Source: a phage
Sequence record: PZ195127.1
Strand: one strand, 5' to 3'
Length of the DNA: 3,120 nucleotides
In this document: positions 51 through 3,120 of the stretch, one piece after another
How positions within the stretch are numbered: the stretch's first letter is position 1
How the letters are laid out: the number at the start of each line of letters is the position of its first letter
Notes under the pieces: generated by a model
The model's database searches: none
Told to the model about the DNA's origin: nothing
Seen by the model: only the letters and a program-made list of their open reading frames with translations
Translations under genes and position numbers: made by a program

Positions 51-1223
51 ATGTTTCCGAAGTCAAATATCGATAGAAATTACAAGGTTAAACTTATCTC
101 GTACGACAAGAAAGGGAATCTTGTTTCCGACGACTCATATGAGCAAGTCGAAAACTATCTCTTTCAAAATCGTTCGAGTACGTATAAACCTGGTTATATC
201 CGTCGCGACTTTCGAAGACCGACTAACTTCTGGAACGGCTATCGCTGTTTCAATCAGCCAGTTGGTACCTTCATTCGGAAACTCTCTGATGGTGGGAGAC
301 AAGTTGCTGATTATGGTATCGTGAACCCTAATAAGTTCACTGCCAACAGCCAGCACTTGGGGGACAACATGGTAATTTACCCTGGTCCCTTTTCTATAAA
401 TATTGATCAGCGTGCTTCTGTCGAAGTCCTCAATAAGCTTTCACAATCAAACCTCAATATTGGGGTTGCGATTGCTGAAGCTAAGATGACTGCTTCATTA
501 CTCGCTAAACAATCTATAGCTCTCATCAGAGCCTACACTGCCGCAAGGCGCGGTAATTGGCGAGAGGTGTTTTCGCAACTCCTCATCTCCGAACACCGTT
601 TCAGAGCTCCTGCTAAGGATCTCGGAGGTCGATGGCTCGAACTGCAGTACGGTTGGTTACCCCTTATGAGCGATTTGAAAGCTGCATATGATTTGCTTAC
701 GCAAACCAAACTGCCTGCTTTCATGCCCTTGAGGGTTACCCGTACCGTTGGCGGAACGCACAATTACAAAGTGCGCAACGTCGAGTCTGCAGGGGATACT
801 TGGTCCTATAGCGATCGTTTGTCGGTGAATTACCGAATATGGTACTTCATTTCCGATCCACGCCTCGCATGGGCTAGTTCCCTCGGGCTTCTTAACCCTT
901 TGGAAATCTATTGGGAAAAGACGCCCTGGTCGTTCGTCGTTGACTGGTTCTTACCTGTCGGTAATCTTATAGAAGCCATGAGTAATCCTCTTGGCCTCGA
1001 CATTATTTCCGGCACGAAGACCTGGCAACTTGAATCAAAACTTAATGCGACGCTTCCGGCTTCGGGCTGGTCTGGAACTGCAAAGTTGTCTGCATACGCG
1101 AAAGCATATGACAGATCTACTTTCTATTCCTTTCCCACCCCTTTGCCGTATGTGAAGTCTCCACTTAGTGGACTTCACTTAGCGAATGCATTAGCCTTAA
1201 TCAACCAACGCCTGAAAAGGTAA
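51..1223 (+). CDS. mat: Maturation (A / assembly) protein, 390 aa; pilus-binding virion protein of an ssRNA phage
   Basis: ORF 51..1223 starts at ATG 51, the first start after an in-frame TGA at 21..23, with GGAGG at 42..46 upstream. The translation contains blocks I recognise from MS2 A protein, e.g. [18 protein letters not shown](Y/F)[33 protein letters not shown] and C-terminal YVKSP.S...ALALI.QRL. Size and first position in the genome fit levivirus A protein. Confidence 0.93.
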
Positions 1224-1239: not shown

Positions 1240-1632
1240 ATGGCAACTTTACGCAGTTTTGTACTCGTCGATAATGGCGGTACGGGGAATGTTACTGTCG
1301 TTCCTGTTAGCAATGCCAACGGCGTCGCTGAGTGGCTTTCTAATAACTCTCGCAGTCAGGCTTATCGCGTGACTGCCAGTTATCGTGCGTCAGGCGCGGA
1401 CAAGCGCAAATACACCATCAAACTTGAAGTGCCGAAGATCGTCACCCAGGTTGTGAATGGTGTTGAGCTGCCTGTTTCCGCATGGAAGGCTTACGCCTCT
1501 ATTGACCTGACCATCCCTATCTTTGCTGCAACCGACGATGTGACCGTTATTTCCAAGTCACTCGCTGGTCTGTTCAAAGTTGGGAACCCTATCGCTGAAG
1601 CTATCTCTTCTCAGAGCGGCTTCTACGCCTAA
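1240..1632 (+). CDS. cp: Coat (capsid) protein, 130 aa, GA/MS2-type levivirus coat
   Basis: ORF 1240..1632 translates to MATLRSFVLVDNGGTGNVTVVPVSNANGVAEWLSNNSRSQAYRVT...LTIPIFAATDD...GNPIAEAISSQSGFYA. This aligns along its length with MS2 coat (..FVLVDNGGTGDVTV...ANGVAEW.SSNSRSQAYKVT...LTIPIFATNSD...GNPIPSAIAANSGIY) and matches my recollection of phage GA coat almost exactly. GGAG at 1228..1231 lies 8 nt upstream of the ATG. Stop is TAA at 1630..1632. Confidence 0.97.
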   Translation: MATLRSFVLVDNGGTGNVTVVPVSNANGVAEWLSNNSRSQAYRVTASYRASGADKRKYTIKLEVPKIVTQVVNGVELPVSAWKAYASIDLTIPIFAATDDVTVISKSLAGLFKVGNPIAEAISSQSGFYA

Positions 1633-1823
1633 TGGGTCTGAAAGCAAAACATAAGGAAAACCTATGTTCCGATTCACAGAGATCGAAAAGACTCTATGTA
1701 TGGATCGCACTCGCGATTGTGCTGTCCGATTTCACGTCTATCTTCAGTCATTGGATTTGGGGTCTTCTGATCCTCATTCTCCAGACTTTGATGGACTTGC
1801 CTACCTTCGTGATGAATGTTTAA
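1632..1823 (+). CDS. lys: Lysis protein L (single-gene lysis protein), 63 aa, overlapping coat stop and replicase 5' end in a different frame
   Basis: The ATG at 1632..1634 overlaps the coat TAA (1630..1632) as TAATG. The product MGLKAKHKENLCSDSQRSKRLYVWIALAIVLSDFTSIFSHWIWGLLILILQTLMDLPTFVMNV has a basic N-terminus and a hydrophobic membrane-spanning C-terminal half. It resembles MS2 L in the segment LY V(W/L)I.LAI(V/F)LS(D/K)FT, including the conserved Leu-Ser dipeptide. Position (coat/replicase junction, alternate frame) is canonical for levivirus L. Confidence 0.85.
   Translation: MGLKAKHKENLCSDSQRSKRLYVWIALAIVLSDFTSIFSHWIWGLLILILQTLMDLPTFVMNV
1649..1667 (+). promoter_or_regulatory. Translational operator hairpin (coat-protein binding site / replicase translation repressor and packaging signal) containing the replicase AUG
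   Basis: ACAUAAGGAAAACCUAUGU folds as a 5-bp lower stem (A1649-U1667, C1650-G1666, A1651-U1665, U1652-A1664, A1653-U1663), a bulged A1654, a 2-bp upper stem (G1655-C1662, G1656-C1661) and a 4-nt loop AAAA (1657..1660). This has the same architecture as the MS2 operator ACAUGAGGAUUACCCAUGU (bulged A, 4-nt loop, replicase AUG in the 3' arm). The Shine-Dalgarno-like AAGGA at 1653..1657 and the replicase ATG at 1664..1666 are sequestered in the stem. Confidence 0.8.
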
Positions 1824-3120
1824 CTAAACATCCCTCACTCGGAGACAGTAATTCGGACGCACGCCGTAAGGAATTGGCATATGCCAAACTTATGGATAGT
1901 GATCAAAGATGCAAAATCCAAAACAGTAACGGATACGACTACTCTCATATCGAGAGTGGCGTACTGAGCGGTATACTCAAGACTGCTCAGGCCCTTGTGG
2001 CGAACTTGCTTACGGGTTTTGAATCTCACTTCCTGAACGATTGTTCATTCTCCAATGGAGCCTCACAAGGGTTCAAGTTGCGGGATGCAGCGCCGTTTAA
2101 GAAGATCGCTGGGCAAGCAACCGTTACAGCTCCTGCTTATGACATCGCCGTGGTCGCCGTTAAAACGTGCGCACCGTGGTATGCTTATATGCAGGAAACG
2201 TATGGCGACGAGACCAAATGGTTTCGTCGGGTATACGGCAACGGTTTGTTTTCTGTTCCGAAGAACAATAAAATAGATCGGGCTGCCTGTAAGGAGCCTG
2301 ATATGAATATGTACCTTCAGAAAGGGGCGGGATCTTTTATAAGAAAACGCCTTCGCTCTGTCGGTATAGATCTTAACGATCAAACGCGCAATCAGGAATT
2401 AGCCCGACTCGGCAGCATTGATGGTTCGCTCGCTACTATTGATCTTAGTAGCGCTAGCGATTCCATCTCTGACCGCCTCGTCTGGGATTTACTTCCACCG
2501 CACGTTTATTCATACCTCGCTCGTATTCGTTCGTCGTTCACTATGATCGACGGGCGGTTACACAAGTGGGGTCTATTTTCTACCATGGGTAACGGCTTTA
2601 CGTTCGAACTCGAGTCCATGATCTTTTGGGCTCTGAGCAAGAGTGTAATGCTGTCCATGGGTGTTACTGGCTCATTAGGCATCTACGGTGACGATATAAT
2701 CGTTCCTGTTGAGTGTGCCCCAACTCTCCTTAGGGTACTATCCGCTGTAAACTTTCTTCCAAATCGGAAGAAGACGTTTATAACGGGTTACTTTCGTGAA
2801 AGTTGCGGTGCTCACTTCTTTAAAGGTGCCGACATGAAACCTTTTTACTGCAAGCGGCCAATGGAAACCCTTCCCGATGTCATGTTGCTTTGCAACAGGA
2901 TAAGGGGTTGGCAGACCGTTGGTGGAATATCAGATCCGCGGCTCTTTCCGATTTGGAAGGAGTTTGCTGATATGATTCCGCCGAAGTTTAAGGGTGGATG
3001 TAACCTGGATCGCGACACTTACCTCGTTTCACCGGATAAACCTGGTGTCACATTGGTTCGTATCGCTAAGGTACGCTCTGGTTTTAACCATGCGTTCCCA
3101 TACGGCCATGAAAATGGCCG
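1664..3120 (+). CDS. rep: Replicase beta-subunit (RNA-dependent RNA polymerase), 3'-partial: about 485 codons present, no stop within window
   Basis: Hand translation from ATG 1664 is open to the window end (last complete codon ends 3118). The product MFRFTEIEKTLCMDRTRDCAV...SSDPHSPDF...YLRDECLTKHPSLG...VPKNNKIDRAACKEPDMNMYLQKGAGSFIRKRL.SVGIDLNDQ...DGSLATIDLSSASDSISDRLVW..LPP..YSYL.RIRS...FSTMGNGFTFELESMIFWA...GIYGDDII...RKTF..G.FRESCGAHF..G.D.KPFY aligns block-for-block with MS2 replicase. The catalytic GDD is at 2687..2695 (YGDD 2684..2695). Not in the ORF track, presumably because it has no in-window stop. Confidence 0.95.
   Translation, partial: MFRFTEIEKTLCMDRTRDCAVRFHVYLQSLDLGSSDPHSPDFDGLAYLRDECLTKHPSLGDSNSDARRKELAYAKLMDSDQRCKIQNSNGYDYSHIESGVLSGILKTAQALVANLLTGFESHFLNDCSFSNGASQGFKLRDAAPFKKIAGQATVTAPAYDIAVVAVKTCAPWYAYMQETYGDETKWFRRVYGNGLFSVPKNNKIDRAACKEPDMNMYLQKGAGSFIRKRLRSVGIDLNDQTRNQELARLGSIDGSLATIDLSSASDSISDRLVWDLLPPHVYSYLARIRSSFTMIDGRLHKWGLFSTMGNGFTFELESMIFWALSKSVMLSMGVTGSLGIYGDDIIVPVECAPTLLRVLSAVNFLPNRKKTFITGYFRESCGAHFFKGADMKPFYCKRPMETLPDVMLLCNRIRGWQTVGGISDPRLFPIWKEFADMIPPKFKGGCNLDRDTYLVSPDKPGVTLVRIAKVRSGFNHAFPYGHENG

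Follow-up and report, generated by a model that had tools for sequence, protein, structure and literature searches.

In the RNA phages Q-beta and PP7, the operator is a hairpin at the replicase start which features one unpaired A and is bound by a dimer of the coat protein. The loop comprises 3 nt in Q-beta and 6 nt in PP7, and the stem lengths also differ from those of the hairpin presented here. The operator of MS2/R17 (ACAUGAGGAUUACCCAUGU; L006 1746-1764) shares with this hairpin five base pairs, an unpaired A at -10 (numbered from the replicase AUG, whose A is +1), two further base pairs and a 4-nt loop with A-7 and A-4, as well as the location of the AUG in the 3' arm. The same geometry is found in the operator of fr (ACAUGAGGAAUACCCAUGU). 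In MS2, a long-range interaction furthermore couples the translation of the replicase to that of the coat protein. For GA, the coat protein dimer reportedly binds an operator sequence identical to the one described below and represses replicase translation (Gott, Wilhelm and Uhlenbeck 1991, NAR 19:6499, as cited in PMC3561173). According to PMC3561173, hairpins at the replicase start bind coat protein and act as translational operators, GA being named among the phages concerned. The same paper describes the unpaired purine and the loop A that precedes the start codon by four bases as critical in MS2, PRR1, and GA, for the last with reference to Gott et al. In synthetic biology, the wild-type site of GA already serves together with its coat protein as a coat-binding part in bacteria, where it shows cross-talk to the MS2 coat, and the comparison of four wild-type sites characterized the PP7 coat as fully orthogonal to the group of MS2, Q-beta, and GA (bioRxiv 10.1101/168625).

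The hairpin in question lies in a stretch of phage DNA of 3,120 nt (record PZ195127.1), which was analyzed as a whole and is referred to as the window. Over its full length, the window is 96.0% identical to BZ13 strain DL20, 95.0% to GA, 94.9% to BZ13 DL10, and about 85% to KU1 and T72, all of them Emesvirus japonicum and thus classical group II RNA coliphages, whereas MS2-type phages match it across approximately 400 nt of the replicase alone, at 74-77%. Judged by these identities, the window is a group II levivirus of the species Emesvirus japonicum. The closest record is 96% identical, and the strain itself is absent from the phage collection searched. Compared with the group II genomes of 3458-3466 nt, the window is an internal piece, being about 80 nt short at the 5' end and about 260 nt short at the 3' end, where the missing portion includes the end of the replicase gene. 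Four Pfam families occur in the order expected of maturation, coat, lysis, and replicase genes:

51..1223, plus strand: maturation (A) protein gene, 390 codons (Pfam Phage_mat-A, 213.3 bits; annotated in GA and BZ13)
1240..1632, plus strand: coat protein gene, 130 codons, the expected binder of the hairpin (Pfam Levi_coat, 132.2 bits)
1632..1823, plus strand: lysis protein gene, 63 codons (open reading frame; Pfam Phage_MS2_lysis, 29.3 bits)
1664..3120, plus strand, running off the window end: replicase beta-subunit gene, 5' 485 codons (Pfam RNA_replicase_B, 716.6 bits; annotated in GA and BZ13)

The coat stop codon is located at 1630-1632, and the hairpin lies in the short interval between coat and replicase genes, enclosing the replicase start. 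The lysis gene overlaps the coat stop in the motif UAAUG and crosses the operator in another frame, a layout shared with GA and BZ13. This overlap of coat stop and lysis start (window 1630-1634) is also present in GA, DL10, and DL20. In KU1 and T72 (L004 1717-1737 and L005 1627-1647), the lysis gene starts 18 nt past the coat stop, and 21 nt are added to the distance between coat gene and operator, which constitutes an insertion in that subgroup. Besides, a stem-loop at 1598-1622, just before the coat stop, was seen in folds of 101 and 150 nt. It corresponds to GA 1683-1707, annotated in GA as a potential control structure of the lysis gene.

Read directly from its letters, the stretch 1649-1667 is ACAUAAGGAAAACCUAUGU. 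The features of this region are as follows:

1649..1667, plus strand: very probable replicase translational operator hairpin, GA type (sequence, fold, and identity to GA)
1648..1668, plus strand: extended hairpin with an extra A-U pair, 1648:1668 (MFE folds of 61 to 3120 nt; this extent is annotated in GA, X03869)
1653..1657, plus strand: likely Shine-Dalgarno site AAGGA of the replicase (read from the sequence)
1664..1666, plus strand: replicase start codon AUG (frame open to the window end; the GA replicase CDS starts at the homologous base)

The hairpin is formed by the pairs 1649:1667, 1650:1666, 1651:1665, 1652:1664, 1653:1663, 1655:1662, and 1656:1661, which correspond to -15:+4, -14:+3, -13:+2, -12:+1, -11:-1, -9:-2, and -8:-3 when numbered from the replicase AUG (1664 = +1). 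Five pairs are thus followed by one unpaired A at -10 (1654, alternatively 1653), two pairs, and the loop AAAA (A-7, A-6, A-5, and A-4; 1657-1660). At the level of the stem, these seven pairs broken by a single unpaired A and the 4-nt loop are what is expected of a GA-type operator. A1660 (-4), A1657 (-7), and A1654 (-10), the bases reported to be critical for coat binding, are all present. The replicase AUG is paired inside the 3' arm. The AAGGA motif, which is likely to serve as the ribosome binding site of the replicase, lies 6 nt upstream of the AUG and covers parts of the 5' arm, the unpaired A, the upper stem, and the first loop base.

The isolated 19-mer adopts the minimum-free-energy (MFE) fold (((((.((....))))))) at -3.3 kcal/mol (z = -2.32). 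Among 200 shuffles preserving the dinucleotides, 7 folded as well or better. The operator hairpin was present in the MFE structure of contexts of 61, 101, 150, 201, and 501 nt and of the whole 3120 nt, with pair probabilities of 0.92-0.99 for all pairs but that adjoining the unpaired A. As a local negative control, the overlapping stretches 1638-1658 and 1639-1657 were folded and remained without structure. The position of the bulge is degenerate because -11 and -10 are both A and U-1 pairs with either of them: A-11:U-1 and A-10:U-1 are equal in energy and have probabilities of 0.51 and 0.48, respectively (window 1653-1654). MS2, with its G at -11, is free of this ambiguity.

Compared with MS2, 15 of the 19 bases are identical. 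The differences concern the loop, which is AUUA in MS2 and AAAA in the window (-6 and -5 changed from U to A), and the pair -11:-1, which is G-C in MS2 and A-U in the window, at a cost of 2 kcal/mol (-3.3 vs. -5.3 kcal/mol). The A at -6 is common to fr and the GA type, whereas fr differs by a U at -5, by a G-C pair at -11:-1, and by Asn87 in its coat. The operator of GA shows no difference in the hairpin at all. Here, 28 nt are identical, comprising the 19-mer, four bases before and five after it. The 19-mer also sits at the same place on the replicase AUG and equally far from the coat stop, and it overlaps the lysis gene in the same way, while the surrounding genome differs by 5%. GA (1734-1752), DL20, DL10, KU1, and T72, which make up the five public group II genomes, all have the identical 19-mer, as do contigs of this species, four of them from IMG/VR and two from metagenomes. 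In the GenBank record of GA (X03869), positions 1733-1753 are annotated as 'pot. stem loop structure; pot. binding site coat protein'. As the gene starts are offset by 85, this annotation corresponds to window 1648-1668. On the basis of this identity, the hairpin is the GA operator already known from the literature, here carried by a strain of the same species that has diverged slightly.

These results bear out most of what an earlier note had proposed from the letters of the window. The note had described a hairpin of MS2 geometry with an AAAA loop and an A-U pair below the unpaired A, and its coordinates proved exact. The folding that it had named as a check returned the hairpin as part of the MFE structure in every context, so that no competing structure displaces it. 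Likewise, the suggested comparison with published operators revealed identity to GA and precisely the differences from MS2 which the note had listed, and its assignment to a GA-like group II phage is borne out by the nucleotide identity of 95-96% to GA and BZ13.

The Rfam model of the MS2 operator (RF02359) aligns to 1647-1667 with every pair intact, covering model positions 16-36 only, and scores 18.1 bits (E 0.45), below the gathering threshold of 40 bits. The GA reference itself obtains 18.1 bits (L001 1732-1752), in comparison to 61.3 bits for MS2 (L006 1729-1764) and 53.6 bits for fr. With 15 nt of 5' flank specific to MS2 built into it, RF02359 covers group I phages only. Since the GA reference is also below the threshold, the model was rejected as a test of membership; for group II it carries no information, and a score below the threshold has no bearing on function. 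Group II operators reach the curated threshold in no Rfam family.

Relatives were gathered by scanning with two queries, the coat protein itself and an alignment of five coat sequences. Every relative reaching far enough features a hairpin of the same geometry on the replicase AUG, at a distance of 14-61 nt from the coat gene. The operators are listed below with the identity of the respective coat to that of the window:

Group II genomes, 95-100%: CAUA-A-GG[AAAA]CC-UAUG
L124 (1799-1815), 73%: CAUA-A-GG[AAAA]CC-UAUG, exactly the GA-type 19-mer
L123 (2727-2743), 74%: CAUG-A-GG[AAUA]CC-CAUG, fr-type
L125 (2902-2921), 71%: one extra loop base, GUA[AAA]UAC or GU[AAAAU]AC
L126 (1260-1276), 63%: CAUG-A-GG[AAAA]CC-CAUG
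MS2, 61%: CAUG-A-GG[AUUA]CC-CAUG
fr, 61%: CAUG-A-GG[AAUA]CC-CAUG
L119 (1685-1701) and L128, 56-57%: CAUG-A-GU[AUAA]AC-CAUG, coat with I85 and D87

The uncultured Emesvirus-like relatives among them (L123, L124, L125, L126, and L119/L128) keep the unpaired A and A-4 and enclose the replicase AUG. Two further metagenome contigs were left out of the operator comparison, as their coat genes break off or shift frame (L129 1238-1531, L130 1012-1397) and L129 runs into unrelated sequence; both are probably assembly chimeras or errors. A scan of IMG/VR with a degenerate pattern (ACATNAGGANNACCNATGT) was tried as a survey and discarded. It yielded 109 loci, nearly all of them chance matches in large DNA-phage contigs, with leviviruses represented by a few short contigs only.

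The alignment used to assess covariation comprised nine operators, eight of them distinct, from phages with coats 56-100% identical. Standard pairs occupy 96.4% of its cells, compared with 16-54% after shifting the partner by 1-3 columns, and one cell counted as 'unpaired' is an artefact of the extra base of L125. Changes on both sides occurred in two of the seven pairs, namely from G-C to A-U at -11:-1 and from G-C to U-A at -8:-3, while A-10, A-7, and A-4 are invariant across all nine sequences. At least two pairs changed on both sides in 64 of 500 shuffles as well, the sample being small, with eight distinct sequences and two such pairs.

The geometry on its own is weak evidence for an operator. 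Its bare form (4-bp stem, unpaired A, 2 bp, and a loop of the type A..A) appeared somewhere in 38 of 300 shuffled windows (about 13%), and the complement of the hairpin also folds (-4.2 kcal/mol, z = -2.36). Both observations would suit a functionless hairpin arisen by chance or a functional element residing in the minus-strand complement. Nevertheless, either explanation is refuted for practical purposes by the exact conservation of the hairpin in group II genomes which are 85-96% identical overall, by the compensatory changes in distant relatives, and by the replicase AUG always being enclosed, and the invariant unpaired adenines are a feature of the plus strand. As the complement of any hairpin folds and nothing else spoke for it, the minus-strand reading was dismissed. 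In 200 shuffles, the GA 19-mer found zero matches within 3 mismatches. Further operator-like hairpins, which could represent packaging signals, were sought in the window and none above chance was obtained, leaving the operator hairpin as the sole one of this geometry. The hairpin is more than a product of chance because it is placed on the replicase AUG, identical to that of GA, and conserved in relatives.

The coat protein encoded upstream, the presumptive partner of the operator, is 100% identical to the capsid protein of BZ13 DL10 and matches the GA coat structures PDB 1GAV and 1UNA (E 1e-79). Its identity to the MS2 coat amounts to 61%, and it retains V29, T45, S47, R49, K57, T59, K61, E63, Y85, and T91, which are the RNA contacts in crystal structures of the MS2 coat-operator complex. 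The coat thereby has the RNA-contacting residues of MS2-type adenine pockets. It differs from MS2 by K43R, N55K, and N87S, which are of GA type, and by E89D. Several variations within this protein family were additionally observed. In the KU1 coat (L004), Phe replaces Tyr85, the residue stacking on loop base -5 in MS2. The coat in the GA record of 1986 (L001, X03869, 1325-1717) has Ala59 and Gly79, whereas Thr59 and Val79 are found in the coats of the window, DL10, DL20, KU1, and T72, and Ile59 in the metagenome contig L121. Thr59 is an RNA-contact residue in MS2; the Ala59 and Gly79 of the 1986 record may reflect an error in sequencing or a laboratory variant. Moreover, the GA-type coat naturally bears Lys55, the change engineered in the high-affinity MS2 variant N55K, while L123-L126 and L119 have Asn55. 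In the engineered MS2 coat, N55K strengthened binding approximately ten-fold, a result attributed to Lim, Spingola and Peabody 1994 (bioRxiv 10.1101/139600).

Upstream of the operator, the fold of the whole window contains a further helix, formed by the following strands:

1640..1645, plus strand: GAAAGC directly 5' of the operator, pairing with 1335-1340 in the whole-window MFE structure
1335..1340, plus strand: GCUUUC, the partner in the coat gene (coat nt 96-101; whole-window MFE structure)

Both strands co-vary at the same coat position in KU1 (GCUUUCU/AGAAAGC), in MS2 and fr (GAAUGG/CCAUUC), in L124 (AGUGGUU/AACCACU), and in L126 (GGAUUUC/GAAAUCC); a clear counterpart was not seen in L123, L119, or L125. 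By analogy, the pairing of 1335-1340 with 1640-1645 looks like the group II counterpart of the long-range interaction of MS2. As the whole-window fold puts the hairpin at the tip of this long-range helix with its co-varying strands, and as the ribosome binding site and the AUG lie inside the stem, it is conceivable that structure alone masks the replicase start without any protein, the hairpin acting together with the pairing to the coat gene. Still, a stem of -3.3 kcal/mol is unlikely to block ribosomes unaided. A purely structural role also leaves unexplained why A-10, A-7, and A-4 are invariant across phages whose coats are only 56-63% identical, and the residues by which the MS2 coat touches these adenines are retained in the coat of the window. 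Together with the published coat binding of GA (cited in PMC3561173), this renders masking by structure alone extremely improbable.

Coat protein specificity calls for separate consideration. The AAAA loop with the A-U pair at -11:-1 is the normal GA-type form and matches the Ser87 coat, residue 87 being the one which reads -5. The GA coat is said to accept A or U at -5 as well as an unpaired A at -10 or -11, and the MS2 coat reportedly prefers a pyrimidine at -5 by means of Asn87. The role of loop position -5 and coat residue 87 as a specificity pair is documented, and crystal structures include the MS2 coat with A at -5 (2C50) as well as an N87S coat in complex with RNAs of MS2 and Q-beta (2B2G, 1ZSE) (PMC10610835). 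The pairing of coat and operator as GA-type proposed in the earlier note is matched by the Ser which the window coat carries at MS2 position 87. Its statement that specificity depends on exactly the loop and the pair beneath the unpaired A holds in part. Loop position -5 is a known specificity position, whereas the A-U pair mainly makes the bulge ambiguous. No evidence was found that the identity of loop position -6 or of the -11:-1 pair sets specificity, nor was there any sign of a reading of the base pair.

The uncultured relatives illustrate this point. In L126, the AAAA loop goes with a G-C pair, and L123 and L124, with coats 94% identical and the same residues at the 14 tabulated MS2 contact positions, feature an fr-type and a GA-type operator, respectively. 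Compared across these sequences, the AAAA loop and the A-U pair prove to be separable and independent features in nature. An A at -5 occurs only with coats lacking Asn87, which have Ser (GA-type, L124, L125, and L126) or Asp (L119 and L128) instead, and coats with Ser87 go along with U or A at -5, as seen in L123 vs. L124. Across the approximately six lineages concerned, this pattern is consistent with a relaxed specificity of Ser87 coats. Tentatively, these phages might be regarded as a natural series of operator-coat co-evolution, in which residue 87 relaxes first and the operator drifts afterward, with L125 having moved further toward another loop size; we consider such a series possible but rather unlikely.

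Taken together, 1649-1667 is with high confidence the replicase translational operator of a group II RNA coliphage (GA/BZ13-type, Emesvirus japonicum). The sequence, the fold and its dominance in every context, the identity to GA, the compensatory conservation, and the contact residues of the coat were observed directly, and none of the data contradicts the explanation as an operator. Coat binding, repression, and the nucleation of assembly are what we infer from the literature on GA and MS2. The coat protein (gene at 1240-1632) would bind the hairpin as a dimer late in infection, recognizing the unpaired A (-10 or -11) together with the adenines of the loop, of which A-4 would be essential. 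Since the free hairpin is weak (-3.3 kcal/mol, compared with -5.3 kcal/mol in MS2), ribosomes should open it unless it is held shut. The bound dimer would stabilize it and, as the AAGGA site and the AUG lie within stem and loop, would keep ribosomes off, so that replicase synthesis is shut down as coat protein accumulates. The complex of coat and hairpin may also nucleate capsid assembly on the genomic RNA.

The latter function could in principle be the main one, the hairpin being a high-affinity start site of capsid assembly or packaging and the repression of the replicase a side effect. As the sole hairpin of operator geometry in the window, it would then be the single strongest coat site. 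Against this emphasis stands its location, which in each of the lineages examined is exactly that of the AUG and ribosome binding site of the replicase, although its distance from the coat gene ranges from 14 to 61 nt. Such a placement on the start codon would be unnecessary for a signal serving packaging alone, which argues that repression itself is selected. We therefore regard packaging as the principal role as very unlikely; besides, packaging and repression are not exclusive, the difference being one of emphasis rather than a true alternative to the translational operator.

For the window itself, the value of the operator lies in annotation, as the hairpin confirms the replicase start, the call of the coat gene, and the group II assignment. 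Coat protein and operator form a textbook example of how proteins recognize RNA and are widely employed for tethering, with the GA pair already characterized and in use. What is added here is solely the few natural variants of the operator that uncultured relatives provide. In these variants the AAAA loop and the A-U pair vary independently of each other, and their distribution is compatible with a tolerance of Ser87 coats for either base at -5.
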